Origin: a virus
Lineage: Duplodnaviria; Caudoviricetes
Strand: one strand, 5' to 3'
IMG/VR virus record: IMGVR_UViG_3300014205_000174
Length of the DNA stretch: 64,000 nt
Shown: positions 1-19,464 of the stretch, piece after piece
Position numbering within the stretch: position 1 is the stretch's first letter
Layout: the number at the start of each line of letters is the position of its first letter
Position numbers and translations under genes: made by a program
The notes under the pieces: model-generated
What the model saw: only the letters and a program-made list of their open reading frames with translations
Database searches by the model: none
Told to the model about the DNA's origin: nothing

Positions 1-339
1 AAGTCAAAGGCTACCGCGAATAAAGCTGCGCATAAACCGACACCAGCCAAAGCGGATATGCCGTCTCTCGAAAAGAGAGTAGGTGCACTGGAGATGCTGC
101 ACGGGATTCCCCCTCGTGGCAATCCCGGAAACGGCCAAGGCCCTATAGCGGGTGCTTTTTCCGTGCCTTTTATCGGCCCTTTACTCATGAGTGATGATTG
201 TGACGAGTGCAAGGAAGCTGCTTATCGTAAGCAAAAGCTGCAACGCAAAGTGGTTATGAATGTCTTTGTGATGGGTATAGGCGTAGGTATGATACTTTCC
301 TCATTTATTATCTCCTCTCTTATGAGGCGGTACGACTAA
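1..339 (+). CDS. hypothetical membrane protein, probably 5'-truncated by the window edge
   Basis: Frame is open from base 1; C-terminal hydrophobic helix (VVMNVFVMGIGVGMILSSFIISSLM) followed by RR. Confidence 0.6.
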   Translation, partial: KSKATANKAAHKPTPAKADMPSLEKRVGALEMLHGIPPRGNPGNGQGPIAGAFSVPFIGPLLMSDDCDECKEAAYRKQKLQRKVVMNVFVMGIGVGMILSSFIISSLMRRYD

Positions 340-344
340 AATAT

Positions 345-3300
345 ATGGGCGTAACAAAGGCCACTAAAAATAAACCGACCAGTAAAAAGCCTTCTGCCGC
401 GAAGGCCGGTGTTGTATTGCCTGTACCGGCAACGCCAGCTCAATTGCGCCGTCGCTGGAATAAAAAAACTAGCCAGGTGGAAAAGCTGGCAAATAATATC
501 CAAAGCCTGCGGTATAATCTCACTACTGATATGAAGAGTGATGACCAGAAGGTGTTTCTGACGGCTCTTTGTGTAAAGTGCATGGAGCTTACTGGTGAGC
601 GTGTCGGCAATGACGAAAGCGCTGCTAATGGGCATAGGGGTATTACTGGATTGCTTAAATCCCAGGTAAAGGTAGAAGGTAATAAGGTTTCATTCCGGTA
701 TACCGGTAAGTCCGGGGTTAACCAGGATAAATCCGTAACGGATGAAAAACTCGCTGATGGCATACGTCGTGCGAAGGAAATATCCAAAGCGAAGTATCTT
801 TTTTGTACAGATGACGGGTTTAAGATAAAGAATGACCGCGTCAACAGGTATCTGGCTGACTTTGAGATTACGGCAAAGGACTTGAGGGGCTTTTCTGCCA
901 ACCGCTGGCTGATACAGAAGTTAGTGGCCAATGATATCGCTGACGAGGAGAAGGACAGAAAAAAAGACTTCAATGCATTTGCAAAGGTTGTTGCTGCGAA
1001 AGTGGGCCACGGTACCGGCATGCTGAAAAACCAATACCTCATACCGGGGTTGGAAAAGGCGTATGTAGAGGAAGGCAAAATAATAGACATCAAGGATATT
1101 GCCGGATATAAAAAAGGTGGTGGCGTTGAAAAGATGGAAAAGGGTGGTGTTGTGGCTAAAAAAGAATCCACTAAAAAACCAAGTCCCAGTGAACCTGCGG
1201 GAAAGACAATAAAATATTCCGAGTTTAAAGAAGATATCCAAACGTTTATATTTCAGTTCCTAGAGGATAGCGGGGCTCCGGATAAGATTCTCGATAACCT
1301 ATACCGCGCAAGGTTTGTGGTTAAGCCGTATCCTATAAAAAATATTTCTCCGGAAGTAAATGAGGCGTCCCTGGATAAAGACCGGGGTGTACAACATGCG
1401 GCAAAGTTCAAAAAAGACAAGTACCAGCCGGTAATATTTTTCAACAACAAACTGATTGATGGCTTCCACAGGGCCTATTCTGAAAAACAAAAGGGTGCAT
1501 CGGTTCTGTATGGTATCGAGCTGTCTGATGTTTTGCATGAAAAGAAGGCGGAGCTGAAGGCCGGCGGCCAGGTATCCAAGCCCGACCCATTTAACGAATG
1601 GTTTGCCGGCAGTAAAGTTGTCGATAGCAAGGGCCAGCCACTTATTGTTTATCATGGCACCGATGCTGAAAATATTACAACATTCAATATTGATTTAGTT
1701 CGCGATAAATTTGGTTTCTGGTTTTCTGACGATAAGGAGTTCTCGGAAATGTTTGGCACTACAGCCATACCGGTATACCTGTGCATTAAAAACCCGCATG
1801 TAATAAGCAAAGAAAAATGGGACGATATCCGACGTGCGCATGCAAAAGATGCAGTGTGGTTTGCATCATGGCGTGACCAGTTAATATCCAAAGGTAAAGA
1901 TGCGCTGATAATTGAAAGCAGCGATACGACCTTTGCTGGCACGAAAATACGTAATCCAGAAATTTATGCGGTATTCCATCCAACGCAAATAAAGCTTGCT
2001 GACGGCTCCAATACCACATTTGACGGCAACAACCCAGACATTCGATTTGAGAAGGGCGGCCATATATATCGCAGTGTTGGCATGGAAGGTTACCTGGTGG
2101 GTAAAAGCAGGTGTCCATATATCGGCAAAGAAAAAGAAATTGATGCTTACGACACGGATATCCGTTGCTTCGTTTCCGAAACCAACGATACCTACCGGTT
2201 TATTTATGTTGTAAACAAAAAGAATGTTTCCGTTCTTCATATTCAAAAGGAAGGTGCTGACTGGGTAATCCGCAATGCATTTACCTTAGAGCATCACCGC
2301 AGACATGGGTATGGCCGGAGTCTTTACCTTGAGGCGCAGAAACATTTGCGCAGAGTTGTATTTTCGTCCAATTTGAGCCAGGAAGGCAAGGCATTTAAAG
2401 AAAATGTTACTCTAGAAATGCATATTGGTAATAATACGGAAATCGGTAGGATTGACGATGAAACAGATACCCAGTTTCAGATAAAAGGAACGTGGTATGC
2501 AAAATGGATAATAAAGCCAGCGGCGGTCGCTGAAGATAATGAAGGTATACTTGTTCCGGATAAGATAAAGCCGACGATGATTATATCTGCATTTTCAAAT
2601 GAGATGGATTGGGATAAGGTAGAGCGGTATGCTGATATTATGAAGGAAAGTGGTATGGAGCATGGTTTCCCTGCTATATCTGGGTATCCTATTATTATTG
2701 ATGAAAACGAAATTGGAGACCAGTTTCTTACCGGTGAGGAAGTGTCTGAACATCATGTTGGTCAGTTAGCGTGGAAGGTAACCAACGGCCATCATCGTTC
2801 TTTGGGGGCCATAAAGGCAGCTCTGCCATGGATTGACGTTGAGCTTGATTATAGTACGGTAACTAACATGGAGCGCCATAAGCGCACAAACGGCAAGTAC
2901 TACGAATCTGGCGGCATTACCGAAGATGATGAACCGAAGTCGACATTAGACCAGCTAAAAGAAGATGTTTCCGCTTGCAGGAACTTTGACATTTTCAGGG
3001 GCAGAATTGCCCTGCGCGAACCAGATGAGGTTAACGAGATAATGACTGTCCTTGGTCTTGAAAAAGCAACTACCAGGGAAATTGGTGATATTAATCTGAA
3101 AAAGCTGAAGGACTTTTATACTCAGGAAAAGCGCATAGTAAATGAGCGTCGTAAGATAAGGGGCAATGAGGCGGCAGCTATCCGCACTGAAAAAAATGTT
3201 GAGAATATCTTTGACCTTGCTAAAATATTAGGTGACGACATGGATAAGGCTGTACTGGATTACGAAGAAAAGAAAGCCGCTATCAAATACCCGGTACAAT

Positions 3301-4814
3301 TAATTACCGTGGAGCCATCTATTTTAGATGTGCTCAATGGCCTTTCGGATAAAGGATGCAGGGCGCTGATAGTTGGTGGCGCTGTCCGTGACGCTATTCT
3401 GGGCATCACCCCGAAAGATATAGACATAGAGGTTTATAACATAACCTACGCAGACCTGAGCGAATACTTATCGCAGTACGGGAGAGTTAACCTTGTTGGT
3501 AAGAACTTTGGGGTTATTAAGTTTAATCCGGCAGCAGGTGGAATGGAATACGACTTCTCCGTTCCAAGAAGGGAAAACAAGATAGGTGTAGGCCACAAAG
3601 AATTTGAAGTGACCTTTGATACCACCATGACCATAAAGGATGCCGCAATGCGCAGGGACTTTACGTTTAACTCCCTTGCGTATGACCCGGTATCCAATAC
3701 GGTGTATGATTACTTTAATGGCCTGATGGATATCCGGCTCAAAGTAATAAGGCACACGTCTGAAAAGTTTACTGAGGACGCGCTGAGAATACTCAGGGCC
3801 ATGCAGTTCCAAGCCAGATTTGATTTCACCATCGCTGAGGATACCAATACCTTAATGCGGGAAATGCTTACTACCTCTGATGAGTTTGCATCCTTGCCAA
3901 AGGAGCGTGTTTTCGAAGAGTGGTACAAGTGGGCCTCAAAGGGCGTCCGCCACGACCTTATATTCTCGTTCATGCGGGATTGCGGCCTTATCGACTGCTA
4001 CCCGGTATTAAAGGCGCTGGCAGAAACGCCGCAGGACGCTGTGTATCACCCGGAGGGGAATGTGGAGGTGCACACTACCTTATGTCTGACTTATATGGAC
4101 TCTATCTTGTCCCGGATGCCGGATATCCCGGCTGACGAGAAAGTAGTGCTGGTAATGTCCACGCTGCTTCATGATGTCGGTAAGCCTGCAACTACAGAGG
4201 AGCAGCTAAAGAATGGCAGAATGACGATTACAAGCAATGGCCATGAGGCATTGGGCGGTAAGATGTGTCATGATTTTTTACCTTCGCTTGGGTTCCATAA
4301 AGATTTGGTAGACCCTATAGCTAATATTGTAGCTAATCATTTGGCTGGCGTGAATATTACCATGATACCGCATGAGAGTGGCAGGGTAAAGGCAGTAAAG
4401 AAGCTAAGTAAGCGATTGTACCCGGCAACTATCCAGCAATTGCTGCATGTGATGGATGCAGACAGTAATGGGCGTGGCTGGGAAGAATACAAAGAACCTA
4501 CCGGTGCAAAGGAGCTGACGACCATAGCCGCAGACATAAACGTGACGGACAGGCCCTATGAATTTATACTTCTGGGGCGTCACCTTATAGAAGCAGGGCT
4601 AAAGCCGTCTCCTGCATTCGGGGAGATTTTACGTAAAGCAAACGAGGCCCAGTTAAACGGCGAATTTAATGATATTACCGGTGGCAGGCAGTGGCTGAAG
4701 GATAATTTGGATAGCTTTGTCAATGGCGGCATTATTAGTGCACCAGTTGATTTGTTTGCCGACTCGCCTGGTGCACCAGTTGTAAATAGTGCAGTGCCGG
4801 ACTTATTTCAATAA
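345..4814 (+). CDS. polyvalent polyprotein: topoisomerase IB catalytic domain + ParB-like + ART-PolyVal ADP-ribosyltransferase + GNAT + ParB-like + class II CCA-adding nucleotidyltransferase with HD domain
   Basis: TopoIB residues RVGN, GKSG, KDLR, GH, QY. ParB-like LIDGFHR and VTNGHHR. ART: SKVVDSKGQPLIVYHGT..GFWFS..PVYLCIKNP..QIK. GNAT: HRRHGYGRSLY. CCA: VGGAVRD..KDIDIEV, RRDFTFN, EDALRILRAMQF. HD: YHPEG..HT..LLHDVGK. Confidence 0.9.
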   Translation: MGVTKATKNKPTSKKPSAAKAGVVLPVPATPAQLRRRWNKKTSQVEKLANNIQSLRYNLTTDMKSDDQKVFLTALCVKCMELTGERVGNDESAANGHRGITGLLKSQVKVEGNKVSFRYTGKSGVNQDKSVTDEKLADGIRRAKEISKAKYLFCTDDGFKIKNDRVNRYLADFEITAKDLRGFSANRWLIQKLVANDIADEEKDRKKDFNAFAKVVAAKVGHGTGMLKNQYLIPGLEKAYVEEGKIIDIKDIAGYKKGGGVEKMEKGGVVAKKESTKKPSPSEPAGKTIKYSEFKEDIQTFIFQFLEDSGAPDKILDNLYRARFVVKPYPIKNISPEVNEASLDKDRGVQHAAKFKKDKYQPVIFFNNKLIDGFHRAYSEKQKGASVLYGIELSDVLHEKKAELKAGGQVSKPDPFNEWFAGSKVVDSKGQPLIVYHGTDAENITTFNIDLVRDKFGFWFSDDKEFSEMFGTTAIPVYLCIKNPHVISKEKWDDIRRAHAKDAVWFASWRDQLISKGKDALIIESSDTTFAGTKIRNPEIYAVFHPTQIKLADGSNTTFDGNNPDIRFEKGGHIYRSVGMEGYLVGKSRCPYIGKEKEIDAYDTDIRCFVSETNDTYRFIYVVNKKNVSVLHIQKEGADWVIRNAFTLEHHRRHGYGRSLYLEAQKHLRRVVFSSNLSQEGKAFKENVTLEMHIGNNTEIGRIDDETDTQFQIKGTWYAKWIIKPAAVAEDNEGILVPDKIKPTMIISAFSNEMDWDKVERYADIMKESGMEHGFPAISGYPIIIDENEIGDQFLTGEEVSEHHVGQLAWKVTNGHHRSLGAIKAALPWIDVELDYSTVTNMERHKRTNGKYYESGGITEDDEPKSTLDQLKEDVSACRNFDIFRGRIALREPDEVNEIMTVLGLEKATTREIGDINLKKLKDFYTQEKRIVNERRKIRGNEAAAIRTEKNVENIFDLAKILGDDMDKAVLDYEEKKAAIKYPVQLITVEPSILDVLNGLSDKGCRALIVGGAVRDAILGITPKDIDIEVYNITYADLSEYLSQYGRVNLVGKNFGVIKFNPAAGGMEYDFSVPRRENKIGVGHKEFEVTFDTTMTIKDAAMRRDFTFNSLAYDPVSNTVYDYFNGLMDIRLKVIRHTSEKFTEDALRILRAMQFQARFDFTIAEDTNTLMREMLTTSDEFASLPKERVFEEWYKWASKGVRHDLIFSFMRDCGLIDCYPVLKALAETPQDAVYHPEGNVEVHTTLCLTYMDSILSRMPDIPADEKVVLVMSTLLHDVGKPATTEEQLKNGRMTITSNGHEALGGKMCHDFLPSLGFHKDLVDPIANIVANHLAGVNITMIPHESGRVKAVKKLSKRLYPATIQQLLHVMDADSNGRGWEEYKEPTGAKELTTIAADINVTDRPYEFILLGRHLIEAGLKPSPAFGEILRKANEAQLNGEFNDITGGRQWLKDNLDSFVNGGIISAPVDLFADSPGAPVVNSAVPDLFQ

Positions 4815-8330: not shown

Positions 8331-8374
8331 AAAAGTGGCAATGAAATAGTAAACTAAACTATCACATTGCCACT
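8331..8374 (-). terminator. intrinsic terminator downstream of the tRNA
   Basis: AGTGGCAATG...CATTGCCACT inverted repeat followed by a T run on the - strand. Confidence 0.65.
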
Positions 8375-8384
8375 CACATCATCG

Positions 8385-8546
8385 TCGCGCTTCATGGGCT
8401 CGAACCACGGGCCTCCACCATTGAAACTCAAAAGCTCCGGCATTATTTACACAAAGGCCAGCTTGCAATCCGGCTCCCATGCTTTAGGGCGTTTACTATT
8501 AAGTTTGCGCATCAGGGTGACGCTCTACCAACTGAGCTAAAGCGCG
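8385..8546 (-). tRNA. tRNA with an about 89-nt insertion in the anticodon loop; identity ambiguous (GAT or TCA); CCA not encoded
   Basis: Acceptor CGCGCTT/AAGCGCG+A; D arm GCTC-AGTTGGTA-GAGC; anticodon stem TCACC/GGTGG enclosing 96 nt (8420-8515); T arm CGTGG-TTCGAGC-CCATG. Confidence 0.8.
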
Positions 8547-8583: not shown

Positions 8584-8600
8584 TGCAAAGTGCGTGCCAA
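8584..8600 (-). promoter_or_regulatory. sigma-54-type -24/-12 promoter upstream of the tRNA
   Basis: TTGGCACGCACTTTGCA matches YTGGCACG-N4-TTGCW. Confidence 0.7.
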
Positions 8601-8627
8601 ACTTTCTACCTGTCGCACAAAGGTTTG

Positions 8628-8978
8628 TTAATACCCATCTGCATCGAAAATCGGAAAGAATAATCTATTATCTTCTGTCCAAAAACCCTCAATTACTCTC
8701 TTGTATAAAGTTGTTACTTCAATCTCTTTGGGTGGTGGTATTTTAGCAGATGGATATATTTCCTGAAAATCACACTCCCACATGCAAGCAGCAATGTTTT
8801 TTTTATTGTCAAGTAAATCAACAAATGAATAAGATTGCCAAGAAGCCCTATTTACTCCATTAACTTTCTTAGTTGGTTTGCTATGGAATATGACTATGCA
8901 GTTATAGTGTCCACCATATGACCCTATCCAAACAGGGCGAGAAGAAATCTTCGGTAATTTCAGTTTTACATGATTCAT
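8628..8978 (-). CDS. hypothetical protein
   Basis: 116-aa ORF co-oriented with its neighbours. Confidence 0.55.
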   Translation of the reverse strand: MNHVKLKLPKISSRPVWIGSYGGHYNCIVIFHSKPTKKVNGVNRASWQSYSFVDLLDNKKNIAACMWECDFQEIYPSAKIPPPKEIEVTTLYKRVIEGFWTEDNRLFFPIFDADGY

Positions 8979-9008
8979 TTTACAATAGCTTTAAGTGCGT
9001 CATTAATG

Positions 9009-9323
9009 TTATGCGGCCACCCGCTTGTAGCTAATAGTATAGATGTCATGTATGGGTACGTCGATAAACCCGCCATTGGTTTCCGGGTCTGTATCTTCGT
9101 CATTTATGTTTTCCTGCCGGTGGTGGTCTACGTTGAACTGGTACCCCTCCGCCTGAAATGAATCTTCGCCCAGGTTGTTCATTACACATTGGATAACTCC
9201 ACCGTTGATATCACCATGGCTAAAATGGAAGTAATAAGCATCTCCGTACTTTTCCAGGATACGCTGTATGGTAGCTTGATGTGTTTCTGCTACAGTATCG
9301 GTATTTGATTGTATCGTTGTCAT
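9009..9323 (-). CDS. hypothetical protein (start revised to ATG at 9323)
   Basis: MTTIQSN... lies just downstream of the sigma-54-type promoter; the longer ORF call runs through the promoter and a terminator. Confidence 0.6.
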   Translation of the reverse strand: MTTIQSNTDTVAETHQATIQRILEKYGDAYYFHFSHGDINGGVIQCVMNNLGEDSFQAEGYQFNVDHHRQENINDEDTDPETNGGFIDVPIHDIYTISYKRVAA

Positions 9324-9348
9324 AAAATAAACGTTGATACTTAGGTAA

Positions 9349-9365
9349 TGCAATTGGCGTGCCAA
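9349..9365 (-). promoter_or_regulatory. sigma-54-type -24/-12 promoter
   Basis: TTGGCACGCCAATTGCA. Confidence 0.7.
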
Positions 9366-9691
9366 ACTTTGGCAATCCCGTAATATTATTGCCAAACTTT
9401 TAAAACACAAAAGCCCCCCGGAATCCGTTGGGCTTTTGCTTTGATTTAGAACTTGTACGCTTGCGGCCATTTCCTGCCATTTCCGCCCGAGCTTGTCCAG
9501 TATGCTCGGTTCGTTTCTTGAAAGCTGCGGTATGTGGCCACCTTCCCGTCGCTTTCCTTTTAATCTTTCTCTTAAATCAGTACTACAAAATATAAATCAA
9601 ATATAACAAATTTCATGCCAAAATATATTATTGTTATAATCCGATTTGTCTCGGTTCCACTTTTTTAATAAATTTACAGGAAAGATTCAAA

Positions 9692-10234
9692 ATGACACCA
9701 GATAAAGTAAAGAAAAGAATTTCCCCATACCTTGAAACCATTACAGAAGCATGTATATTTTATCCTTTATTGGATACTAAAGGATATGGCAGCATTCAAT
9801 ATAGGGTGCCAGGGAAGAAAGTGCATTACAGAGCGCATAGGGTCTCTTTTGAATTAGCAAATAACTGCGAATTACTGCAAGCAGATGTAATATTACACTC
9901 CTGCGATAATCCAGCATGCATTAACCCGCGCCATCTTACTAAGGGTACTCACGAAGATAATCAGCGGGATAAGATGGCTAAGGGCAGGCAGGCCAAGGGT
10001 AAAACCAATGGCAGATACGTGCATGGTTATTATTCAAAGTTTGAGCCTGTGGCAAAACCTGTTCCGGATTTTCAGACTTTATGTAACAGAAGTATTTCTC
10101 TTGAAACTGCAAAAGCGATTAAAAGCAGAATTAAAGTCGGCGGCTGCAAGTTAATAGACCTATCTAAGGAGTTCGGCATACCGTACCAAACTATAAAAGA
10201 TATTAGTGCAGGAAGGGCATATAAAAACGTATAG
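9692..10234 (+). CDS. HNH homing endonuclease
   Basis: GYGSI..AHRVSF..LHSCDNPACINPRHL..GTHEDNQRD plus a C-terminal HTH-like segment. Confidence 0.9.
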   Translation: MTPDKVKKRISPYLETITEACIFYPLLDTKGYGSIQYRVPGKKVHYRAHRVSFELANNCELLQADVILHSCDNPACINPRHLTKGTHEDNQRDKMAKGRQAKGKTNGRYVHGYYSKFEPVAKPVPDFQTLCNRSISLETAKAIKSRIKVGGCKLIDLSKEFGIPYQTIKDISAGRAYKNV

Positions 10235-10253
10235 CTGTCCAAAATTTTGATTT

Positions 10254-10277
10254 TTGGCACGAGTTTTGCTATATTTG
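10254..10277 (+). promoter_or_regulatory. overlapping sigma-54-type promoter and Bacteroidota -7 box upstream of tmRNA
   Basis: TTGGCACGAGTTTTGCT (10254-10270) and TATATTTG (10270-10277). Confidence 0.65.
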
Positions 10278-10283
10278 TGTTGC

Positions 10284-10690
10284 ACGTTTGTTGAGGCTTT
10301 TTGAGAATCTGTAAGACCCGAGTTCGACTCTCGGCGACTCCTCAAAATTGCGGTTAGTAATATATGTTGGTGTACAACAATTTATATGAAAGGGTGTATC
10401 CATTATTGCAGCTCCTGGAATTCAAACGGTTGAGCGCGAAAAAAATACACGGCGGCAGCCCGCAATGATATTATTAGTCATGAGTAAGTACATGACTCGC
10501 CACCCTATCAACACGGGGTCGACTGGCTATCGATTGCAGAGGATGGAAAGTGGAGAATGTGTAACATTGAACGGCAACACAATTGCTTTTACTCCGGTTT
10601 ACTCTATGAGAAAAACTGCGTAGTACGAAATTAAGCTCCAGCGAAAACGGGGCCAGAAGGAGCAGGCGTAAGTCTGCTCCTTTGCTTTTG
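10284..10690 (+). ncRNA. ssrA: circularly permuted (two-piece) tmRNA; outer ends approximate
   Basis: Acceptor piece first: TCTGTAA-GAC, T arm CCGAG-TTCGACT-CTCGG, CGACTCC (10335-10341). Coding piece later: GGGGTCG (10515-10521) pairs with it including G3-U70; TTGCAGA pairs with TCTGTAA; tag ORF 10573-10623 GNTIAFTPVYSMRKTA*; terminator hairpin near 10656-10690. Confidence 0.8.
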
Positions 10691-17199: not shown

Positions 17200-19464
17200 A
17201 TGCCTAACGAAAACGAAATCATACAGCAAGCAATAGACCAGGTAAGACGCGATATTCTTGCGAACAAGGATTTTGTGCGCGGTATACTGAAGGATATTAA
17301 GCTCACAAAAGACAACATTGACCCCAATTTAATCTACGCGCTCATGACACAATTTGCTTCAAATCAGCAGCCAAGAAGGCCGCAATCGAATGCGCCAAAA
17401 GAAATTGCAGACGGCGACAAGGCCGTAGCAAAGCCAATTGCCATTTCCGTGGACAGCCTTGAATCAAAGGTTGTGGCGGACTTGCTGTCCGGTAATAACG
17501 TGTATTTATACGGCAAGGCCGGTAGCGGTAAGGCTCAGCCGTTGTATTCGAAGATAGCCACACCCGATGGCTGGAAGGCCATGGGTGACTTGTCAAAAGG
17601 GGATACTGTTTATTCTTCTGACGGTAAGCCAACTAAGGTGACTGGCGTATTTGACAGGGGCGTGAGGGATATTTATCGCATTACCTTTTCTGATGGGTCG
17701 TATACTGATTGTTGCGACGAGCATTTATGGGCTGTGTATAATTATAATTACATGGCTGGTAAAGAAACAAAGGTGATGGCGCTGAGTGCTTTTAAGGATA
17801 ATATTATTAAGAAGCACGGAGGTGGTAAGTATAGAATACCTATAAGCCAGGCTGTTCAATACAAGGCTAAGAAGCATGTAATACACCCATATGTATTGGG
17901 CGTAATATTGGGTGATGGCGGCATGACAAATGAGAATATTACTATCACCACGCCGGATACTTTTATTGTAAAAAAAGTATCCGCATTACTACCGGATACT
18001 TTGGAGCTGAGGCTGTTTAAGCAAGAAGAAGGCAAGTGCCCAACATACGGTATCCGGCTAAAAGATAAAAAGACTAAAATAAATGTTTATCGGCATGAAT
18101 TAATAAGGCTGGGCCTGATGTATAAGAAGTCAATAGATAAATCAATACCGGCAGAATATCTGTTTGATTCTATTGAAAACAGGCAGCAATTATTACTGGG
18201 TCTTAATGATACGGATGGTTCTGCTAGCGTATCAATGGAGTTTAGCACTTCATCTGAGAAATTATCACAGGATTACGTGGAGCTGATTCAGTCCCTTGGC
18301 GGTACATGCAGGGTGAAATCAAGGATACCGAAATTCAAAAACAGTAAAGGGGAAGTTGCTTATGGCCATGTAAGCTTCCGGCTTTATCCAAAAGTGATGA
18401 ATGAGCTGGAGCTGTTTTCGTTGCCGTCTAAAAAGAGTAAAGTTCCCAAGCGTACAAAGTATTTCCCGTCAAGGGTGATTTATAGTGTTGAATTTATAGG
18501 TAAGCTGCCAGCAAGATGTATATCTGTTGCGAATGAAAGTCATTTATATCTTACCGATAGCTACATCGTAACGCATAATACCTACCTCGCCGAAGCCATA
18601 GCAACAACTATCATGGGCCAGAAGAAGTTCCTGATAAATTGTTCGCAATGGACGTCCCCTGTGCAGCTTATTGGCGGCCAGACCATTAAGGGCTACCAGG
18701 AAGGGGAATTGATTAAGGCGTGGGCTCAGGGTGGGATACTTATACTTGATGAGTTGCCCAAGCTTGACCCGAATACGGCCAGTCTGCTTAATGCTGCACT
18801 GGCAGAGACAGCCGCTCAGCCGAAATACGATGATGCGGGAAATGTAATACCCAGCACTATTCCTTCTATCACCAATGGTCGTGGTGATGTTATTTATAAG
18901 GGACAAGACCAGGCCGACCCGGCATTGAAATTCAGGTTTGGGGTAATTGGTACCGGTAACACGGATATGAAGACCGTGGGTAATAAATACGGCGGTAACC
19001 AAAAGCAGGACTATTCACTTGTGGACAGGTTTGCCGGCTCTTATTACCTGCTTGATTATTCACGTGATACGGAGATGCGCCTCACCTACCCTTATGTGTA
19101 CGGTGTATGTGCTGCCATACGTAAATTCCTTGACGCACGTGATTCCGTGGAAAGCATATCGCTTCGTACCATGCTCAACATGAACAGGACATATGAGCAG
19201 GAGATGCTGTATAAGCTGGAGAACAGCCCGTTTGCCGATGAGATTTTCGACAACAACGGGAATGAAATCCCTCCAAAAACTATTGATAATTCCATCGATA
19301 GCTTTTTGTCTATGCTGGACAAGCAAAAGATGAATGACCTGCTCGACGATACCGACTTTAAGAACGCGCGTAACAGCACGGATAATAATGTCGAGACATT
19401 CATCCGGCACTTTAAAGCCAAGTATCATCTTGACCCGATTACCGGAGAAAGAGTCAAGAAGTAG
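17200..19464 (+). CDS. MoxR/CbbQ-like AAA+ ATPase containing an intein
   Basis: Walker A GKAGSGK|T split by the intein; Walker B ILILDE; GTGNT sensor; LVDRF arginine finger; ISLR. Confidence 0.88.
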   Translation: MPNENEIIQQAIDQVRRDILANKDFVRGILKDIKLTKDNIDPNLIYALMTQFASNQQPRRPQSNAPKEIADGDKAVAKPIAISVDSLESKVVADLLSGNNVYLYGKAGSGKAQPLYSKIATPDGWKAMGDLSKGDTVYSSDGKPTKVTGVFDRGVRDIYRITFSDGSYTDCCDEHLWAVYNYNYMAGKETKVMALSAFKDNIIKKHGGGKYRIPISQAVQYKAKKHVIHPYVLGVILGDGGMTNENITITTPDTFIVKKVSALLPDTLELRLFKQEEGKCPTYGIRLKDKKTKINVYRHELIRLGLMYKKSIDKSIPAEYLFDSIENRQQLLLGLNDTDGSASVSMEFSTSSEKLSQDYVELIQSLGGTCRVKSRIPKFKNSKGEVAYGHVSFRLYPKVMNELELFSLPSKKSKVPKRTKYFPSRVIYSVEFIGKLPARCISVANESHLYLTDSYIVTHNTYLAEAIATTIMGQKKFLINCSQWTSPVQLIGGQTIKGYQEGELIKAWAQGGILILDELPKLDPNTASLLNAALAETAAQPKYDDAGNVIPSTIPSITNGRGDVIYKGQDQADPALKFRFGVIGTGNTDMKTVGNKYGGNQKQDYSLVDRFAGSYYLLDYSRDTEMRLTYPYVYGVCAAIRKFLDARDSVESISLRTMLNMNRTYEQEMLYKLENSPFADEIFDNNGNEIPPKTIDNSIDSFLSMLDKQKMNDLLDDTDFKNARNSTDNNVETFIRHFKAKYHLDPITGERVKK
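17533..18579 (+). mobile_element. class 3 intein (349 aa) with a LAGLIDADG homing endonuclease
   Basis: Starts AQPL, ends VTHN before Thr; W in EHLW, C in RCISV, T in VTHN (WCT triad); LGVILGDGG and LLGLNDTDGS motifs. Confidence 0.88.

Follow-up and report, generated by a model that had tools for sequence, protein, structure and literature searches.

Two-piece tmRNAs, encoded by circularly permuted ssrA genes, are found in the Alphaproteobacteria, some Betaproteobacteria and the Cyanobacteria, and the corresponding Rfam models RF01849, RF01850 and RF01851 have been merged as RF04321 (PMC11915505). The tmRNA genes of the Bacteroidota are of the standard form in 24,380 of 24,454 cases (PMC11915505, Supplementary Table 2), and the native Bacteroides tag, GETNYALAA, begins with glycine and acts as a strong degron (bioRxiv 10.1101/2025.03.18.644028). 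A tmRNA of any kind is carried by about 2.3% of phage genomes (PMC9004378), and huge phages are known to carry tmRNAs (PMC7162821). Two-piece forms occur in aquatic phages, including the OM43 phage Melnitz, pelagimyophages and cyanophages; they are reported to group with alpha, beta/gamma or cyanobacterial host lineages, are called by ARAGORN, and are usually read as keeping the hijacked translation machinery running (PMC9004378). With 53 unique two-piece tmRNAs already reported from phage genomes (PMC9004378), a permuted ssrA gene in a virus, as described by a first-pass annotation of the DNA analysed here, is no novelty by itself.

The window, a stretch of 64,000 nt of phage DNA, carries at 10281-10690 a real and divergent circularly permuted (two-piece) tmRNA gene. 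Like the published phage genes it is a phage-borne permuted ssrA with its own, in this case predicted, promoter; unlike them it is missed by ARAGORN, resembles no lineage model and is linked to an HNH endonuclease gene. We consider it probable that the gene belongs to a family of phage tmRNAs that travels with a free-standing HNH gene, and that it works by the mechanism proposed below. As in the Caulobacter model of two-piece tmRNA, the 3′ half precedes the 5′ half, the acceptor stem with G3-U70 forms between the pieces, a long P2 joins them, and the tag frame lies on the 5′-half piece. The window copy differs from the bacterial two-piece tmRNAs in scoring under the RF04321 cut-off, with lineage models at 12 bits or less and no pseudoknots predicted, in having a U discriminator without an encoded CCA, a glycine resume codon (GGC) and a tag that does not end in AA, and in residing in a phage whose presumed host phylum is overwhelmingly of the standard form. 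The glycine resume codon and the G-x-T start of the tag are shared with standard Bacteroides tmRNA, a likeness drawn from the tag alone; unlike the window copy, Bacteroides tmRNA is one-piece and carries a tag that ends in LAA and is a strong degron.

Gene layout, detection and fold

All parts of the gene lie on the plus strand, in the order tRNA-like 3′ half, 172-nt spacer and 5′ half. The acceptor piece (10281-10342, 62 nt) comprises one strand each of helices P2c (10281-10289), P2b (10296-10303) and P2a (TCTGTAA, 10308-10314), the T arm (10318-10334; CCGAG / TTCGACT / CTCGG), the acceptor 3′ strand (CGACTCC, 10335-10341) and the discriminator U73 at 10342. The combination of A73 with an encoded CCA is absent, U at 10342 being followed by CAA. 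The coding piece (10515-10690, 176 nt) runs from the acceptor 5′ strand (GGGGTCG, 10515-10521) through a D-loop analogue with GG (10522-10533, ACTGGCTATCGA) and the opposite strands of P2a (TTGCAGA, 10534-10540), P2b (10544-10551) and P2c (10555-10563) to the tag frame (10573-10623), which starts with GGC at 10573, reads GNTIAFTPVYSMRKTA and stops at TAG (10621-10623); it ends with a terminator-like hairpin at 10657-10682, with a 9-bp stem and a U-rich tail to 10689. The acceptor strands of the two halves pair at 7/7 positions with G3-U70 present, TCTGTAA and TTGCAGA also pair 7/7, and the T arm has a 5-bp stem and a TTCRA-type loop. The first-pass annotation had described the T arm with CGACTCC at 10318-10341, GGGGTCG at 10515, the G3-U70 pair, the TTGCAGA/TCTGTAA helix and a spacer of about 172 nt, and each of these was found with a displacement of one base at most; the U discriminator that it had named is the T at 10342.

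The intervening segment (10343-10514, plus strand) gave a fold z-score of only -1.7 and had no Rfam match. It is presumably lost by 3′ trimming of the acceptor piece together with an RNase P cut 5′ of G10515. An ORF of 34 codons (ATG to TGA) lies wholly within it at 10364-10468 (+) and may be there by chance.

Upstream of the gene, a sigma-54-type -24/-12 promoter motif (TGGCACG-N4-TTGC) was found at 10255-10269 (+), with a predicted transcript start near 10281, the first base of helix P2c. The pattern TGGCAC-N5-TTGC has three exact copies in the window, all inside 8585-10269, against an estimated 0.1 expected by chance. The hairpin at the other end was absent from a simple terminator scan, and the 9-bp stem shows up as a weak Rfam hit. 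As the promoter motif and the hairpin bracket exactly both tmRNA halves, we infer that the halves would form a single transcription unit. The promoter at 10255-10269 is putative. The same sigma-54-type motif was seen at 8585-8599 (-) before a tRNA-like gene at 8385-8545 (-), which is followed by a hairpin at 8334-8374. This gene (GCGCTTT..AGCTCAGTTGGTAGAGC..CTGAT, an insert of about 105 nt, then GGTTCGAGCCCATG AAGCGCG-A) looks like a tRNA-Ile(GAU) whose anticodon loop holds a big insert and whose CCA is not encoded; it was called by neither ARAGORN nor Rfam.

Rfam at gathering thresholds returned nothing for the window tmRNA, and ARAGORN found no tmRNA in the window; a local ARAGORN run with thresholds down to 60% gave only a spurious call. 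In a sensitive 1-kb search, RF04321 (tmRNA_permuted) aligned 10284-10586 at 32.4 bits with E = 1.3e-4, which becomes roughly 0.01 when scaled to the whole window, the score being below the gathering cut-off of 47 bits. The alignment set every helix of the tRNA-like domain in order and handled the spacer as an insertion. Thus, of the two programs named in the first-pass annotation as a check, Infernal aligned the locus, under the cut-off, and ARAGORN was silent. The alpha, beta and cyanobacterial lineage models (RF01849, RF01850 and RF01851) had no match listed at E up to 10, and the best clan hit other than RF04321 reached 12.1 bits and covered the T arm alone. For comparison, the alpha-type gene L005, recovered in pattern scans, scored 67.8 bits with alpha_tmRNA, and L009 scored 41.2 bits with cyano_tmRNA. 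A sequence-only pattern of the two halves was matched in 0 of 100 shuffles; it was drawn up from the window sequence and is hence not independent. No match to the window tmRNA was found by blastn against the INPHARED phages, several exact or degenerate DNA patterns gave nothing or chance hits (L006, L007, L026), and no close homologue of the exact RNA was present in any collection searched.

Seven other phage copies, L008, L009 and L011-L015, are two-piece genes located in tRNA clusters, with tags such as ANNIVSFRRTLTAVAA and mostly with 7-nt spacers. They were considered as possible members of the family of the window gene and rejected: their tags and the 41-bit cyano_tmRNA hit mark them as cyanobacterial-type, and they were kept as comparators only. 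Within the spacer of L008 (913-1018, 106 nt) lies a tRNA-like sequence that has motifs of a D arm and a T arm as well as matching ends, and on which ARAGORN made no call; L009 and L011-L015 are the same gene with a 7-nt spacer.

Cofolding of the two pieces with the tRNA-like domain alone constrained gave -75.1 kcal/mol, and the unconstrained optimum was -76.7 kcal/mol. The constrained fold consists of the acceptor stem (7 bp), P2a (7 bp), P2b (8 bp; 10544-10551 with 10296-10303), P2c (9 bp; 10555-10563 with 10281-10289) and the T arm, and all 36 base pairs of these five helices are standard pairs. The permuted tmRNAs of two further phage contigs, L062 and L069 (see below), fold separately into the same acceptor / P2a / P2b / P2c / T-arm layout. 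The strands of P2c are GAAUGUGUA with UGCACGUUU in the window, GAGUACUAU with AUAGUAUUC in L062 and GAGCAUUAA with UUAGUGUUC in L069; all nine positions pair in each of the three, and six of the nine show compensatory two-sided changes. Covariation between the window and these two extends to acceptor pairs 5 and 6 and to three pairs of the T stem. Lack of covariation, which the first-pass annotation had named among the grounds against its reading, was thus not what we found. Pairing of the 5′ tail of the acceptor piece with 10633-10650, as seen in unconstrained folds, is ruled out by the P2c covariation.

The resume codon lies 58 nt from the 5′ end in the window, 62 nt in L062 and 61 nt in L069, compared with 83-92 nt in the standard relatives. 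Between P2c and the resume codon there are just 9 nt, which would leave no room for the pseudoknot PK1, and the window RNA is predicted to be minimal, with no pseudoknots. The tmRNAs of L062, L069 and L068 have degenerate T loops (GGCAGAG, GGCGGTA) and a D-loop analogue without GG; the T loop and the D-loop GG are both kept in the window, L058, L065 and L066. This joint loss may be covariation of a tertiary contact.

The HNH-linked family and its presumed hosts

Immediately upstream, at 9692-10234 (+), lies a gene for a free-standing HNH (His-Me finger) homing endonuclease, ending 46 nt before the predicted start of the tmRNA. Its product matched PHROG HNH families (best E = 1.5e-22) and, each slightly under the cut-off, Pfam zf-His_Me_endon and HNH_3. 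Free-standing homing endonucleases adjoin phage tRNA genes, as do T4 SegB and the Mob HNH family. The present gene is similar to these in being a small intronless HNH gene beside a stable-RNA gene and missing from the closest related genomes; it differs in that the partner is a tmRNA gene, of either form, and a homing role is putative here.

Homologues of the HNH gene were traced to their contigs and the flanks scanned for tmRNA, giving eight loci including the window. In seven of the eight the HNH homologue adjoins a tmRNA gene, four standard and three permuted (window counted); the exception is L064, where the homologue is present and the flank scan gave no tmRNA. This linkage gives independent support that the window copy is a real tmRNA. 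The standard genes, in L058 (58.4 bits with Rfam), L065 (57.5 bits), L066 (50.8 bits) and L068 (48.5 bits), are followed by the HNH gene about 75-90 nt downstream. In the permuted loci the order is HNH, then tmRNA: L062 (49.6 bits) and L069 (51.2 bits) both exceed the cut-off of 47, and the window has 32.4 bits. The lone event implied by the first-pass annotation therefore does not hold, as the permuted tmRNAs of the phage contigs L062 and L069 likewise have the HNH gene upstream and fold in the same way. ARAGORN missed five to six of the seven tmRNA genes of the family, and our literature search found no paper on a family of free-standing HNH genes that are linked to tmRNA genes of both forms.

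The window resembles L062 and L069 in the HNH-upstream order, in the acceptor/P2a/P2b/P2c/T fold and in having its 5′ end 58-62 nt from the resume codon. It is alone among the seven in having U73, a tag ending in KTA and a spacer of 172 nt, those of L062 and L069 being clearly shorter, and alone in that a predicted sigma-54-type promoter of its own separates the tmRNA from the HNH gene. In L062 the start of the acceptor piece and the HNH stop codon overlap (4553-4558); co-transcription of nuclease gene and tmRNA is therefore probable at this locus. In L065 a conserved hairpin with CCTCCACGTGG (2423-2482) lies immediately 3′ of the discriminator, between the tmRNA and the HNH gene, and scored weakly as an HDV-like ribozyme (26.9 bits, E = 0.3); similar stretches occupy this position in L066 and L068, the L068 version being CTTCCACGTAG. 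A self-cleaving RNA at such a hairpin could set the tmRNA 3′ end.

All contigs of the HNH family are Shine-Dalgarno-poor. In the window, Shine-Dalgarno sites preceded 2 of 35 and 3 of 55 genes in two counts, a scarcity which we take to fit a Bacteroidota-type host, and from its sequence the element resembles a large phage of such a host, Shine-Dalgarno-poor and of Bacteroidota type. An origin or a host among the Clostridia was also considered. A standard tmRNA at 236-598 (-) of L010, from the Clostridia MAG CALVME010000101, has a 3′ region identical to the window acceptor piece at 43 of 49 positions, the P2b strand included. A 34-mer, allowing up to three mismatches, was found in none of 400 other genomes sampled from the phylum of this MAG, and a 23-mer from this region, also with up to three mismatches, in none of its 30 closest relatives. 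These negative searches, the lack of Shine-Dalgarno sites and the better core match to L058 speak against a Clostridia source.

The closest helicase relatives of the window (L001-L004, 68% identity) have no tmRNA at the corresponding site, and 60 kb of their sequence gave no tmRNA with either Rfam or ARAGORN. No SmpB gene was found among the ten ORFs neighbouring the window tmRNA. A CCA-adding enzyme / HD domain is encoded 6 kb upstream of the tmRNA, at 3363-4664 (+), as residues ~1007-1440 of a 1489-aa polyvalent protein (345-4814); it matched the PHROG tRNA nucleotidyltransferase with E = 1.5e-69 and Pfam PolyA_pol and HD. With CCA not encoded in the tmRNA, this domain is a candidate for maturing it. 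Neither a CCA-adding nor an HD domain was among the Pfam hits listed for the counterparts of the protein in related contigs (853 and 849 aa). Elsewhere in the window, an AAA_5 ATPase gene at 17200-19464 (+) has a LAGLIDADG / Hom_end segment at residues ~316-383, which suggests that it holds an intein.

Two lines of evidence bear on the origin of the permutation. In the HNH tree, the window gene joins that of L058, which stands beside a standard tmRNA (support 99/99), and L062 and L069 pair separately (83/80). The tRNA-like core, the last 27 nt of the acceptor piece (GAC, T arm and acceptor strand), is identical to that of L058 at 26 of 27 positions, the one differing base being matched by a compensatory change on the opposite strand. 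The architecture, that is the HNH-upstream order, the apparent absence of PK1 and the P2 layout, groups the window with L062 and L069. Either two permutation events occurred, or parts of different genes were brought together by recombination around the nuclease gene.

Tag, discriminator and probable function

The resume codon was set by homology, L062, L069 and L065 all having GGC, and by the upstream U-R-R context; a frame shift of one base would make the window tag read ATQLLLLRFTL instead. The window tag, with its frame, resume codon and stop, is homologous to the tags of the relatives. The non-canonical tag end pointed out by the first-pass annotation stands, the window ending in RKTA and all six relatives in AA (VAA, MAA, LAA and three times IAA). 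The last codons are AGA AAA ACT GCG TAG (RKTA) in the window and AGA ATA GCT GCG TAA (RIAA) in L068; RKTA thus differs from RIAA by two point changes, in the two residues preceding the last alanine. The two residues before the last alanine of an ssrA tag matter most for ClpX recognition. The tag of L069, GETTNMKMAA, resembles the Bacteroides tag GETNYALAA, more closely than the window tag does. The discriminator is A in all six relatives, and none of the six encodes CCA. Among the seven tmRNAs of the family, only the window copy combines U73 with a tag end other than AA. From what is known of tRNA-Ala identity, U73 in place of A73 should reduce charging by AlaRS.

The mechanism that we propose would begin with a single transcript, started by the sigma-54-type promoter near 10281 and ended at the hairpin near 10689. 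RNase P would cut 5′ of G10515, the acceptor piece would be trimmed to U10342, and CCA would be added to U10342 by a host or phage CCA-adding enzyme. The 62-nt acceptor piece would then be held on the 176-nt coding piece by the acceptor stem together with P2a, P2b and P2c. Charging by host AlaRS would proceed via G3-U70, host SmpB and EF-Tu would bring the tmRNA to stalled ribosomes, and translation would resume at GGC, appending A-GNTIAFTPVYSMRKTA. The ribosome would be released with poor or no marking of the product for AA-directed proteases.

We find it highly improbable that the locus is not a tmRNA, being instead a chance tRNA-like match, an attP-type 3′ fragment of a host tRNA or tmRNA gene, or part of a 52-codon ORF at 10465-10623. 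Phage attachment sites do often bear the 3′ ends of tRNA and tmRNA genes (PMC9004378), and the tag frame runs on upstream without a stop for 36 codons, to an ATG at 10465. However, both halves are present and complementary, three more helices form between them, homologues covary, and an HNH gene accompanies a tmRNA in seven of eight loci; the ORF has no Pfam match, and the sequence before its ATG is G+C-rich, whereas the leaders of window genes are A/T-rich. A decoy is likewise quite unlikely. Such an RNA would bind host SmpB or ribosomes, be poorly charged or translated, and thereby block host trans-translation, and there is a precedent in the mycobacteriophage DS6A-like molecule, which consists of the tRNA-like domain only and strongly inhibits tmRNA, perhaps by SmpB titration (PMC4131195, PMC11915505). 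U73 and the absent CCA could lower charging, but an encoded CCA is missing in all relatives too and its absence is thus the family norm, and the G3-U70 pair, the resume-codon context of the relatives, the 16-codon frame and its stop, all needless for a decoy, have been kept.

The gene could also be a recently inactivated, decaying copy that is kept by carriage with the HNH cassette and, whether transcribed or not, no longer works in trans-translation, which we judge to be unlikely. U73 and the lost AA end do fit a copy under relaxed selection, for of the two features found in the window alone, one (A73 to U73) concerns charging with alanine and the other (IAA/VAA to KTA) the degron. The window tmRNA has moreover the lowest Rfam score of the three permuted genes and is a singleton with no close homologue found, and its core is nearly identical to that of L058, so intact stems may reflect recent ancestry and not selection. 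Against decay, the 36 pairs are all standard, and the P2 helices remain paired although their sequences depart from those in L062 and L069; the T loop and D-loop GG are canonical, better than in L062, L069 and L068; and neither the promoter motif, the terminator hairpin nor the open frame of 16 codons, stop codon included, is disrupted. A working tmRNA remains our preferred reading. Judged by its sequence, the window tmRNA is likely to function in trans-translation, and it is plausible that it would free ribosomes while marking their products poorly, or not at all, for host AA-directed proteases.

We also put forward, tentatively and as a rather doubtful extension, that the HNH gene repeatedly reshuffles tmRNA genes, the two forms interconverting or recurring in phages of Bacteroidota-type hosts, and that the window copy has been retuned to rescue without proteolysis. 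If this is true, the retuned tag would shield incomplete viral proteins from degradation or save protease capacity in the infected cell. ARAGORN misses most genes of this family, and the window copy also falls under the Rfam cut-off, which means that phage annotation pipelines undercount such genes. Two-piece tmRNA is a textbook example of a permuted RNA gene; to our knowledge, how a tmRNA gene becomes permuted is known solely from old bacterial lineages. A young phage family in which both gene forms lie beside the same mobile nuclease makes the intermediate steps reconstructable and testable, and the window copy, a natural variant with the two residues before the final alanine changed, offers a simple test of whether ribosome rescue can be uncoupled from proteolysis.
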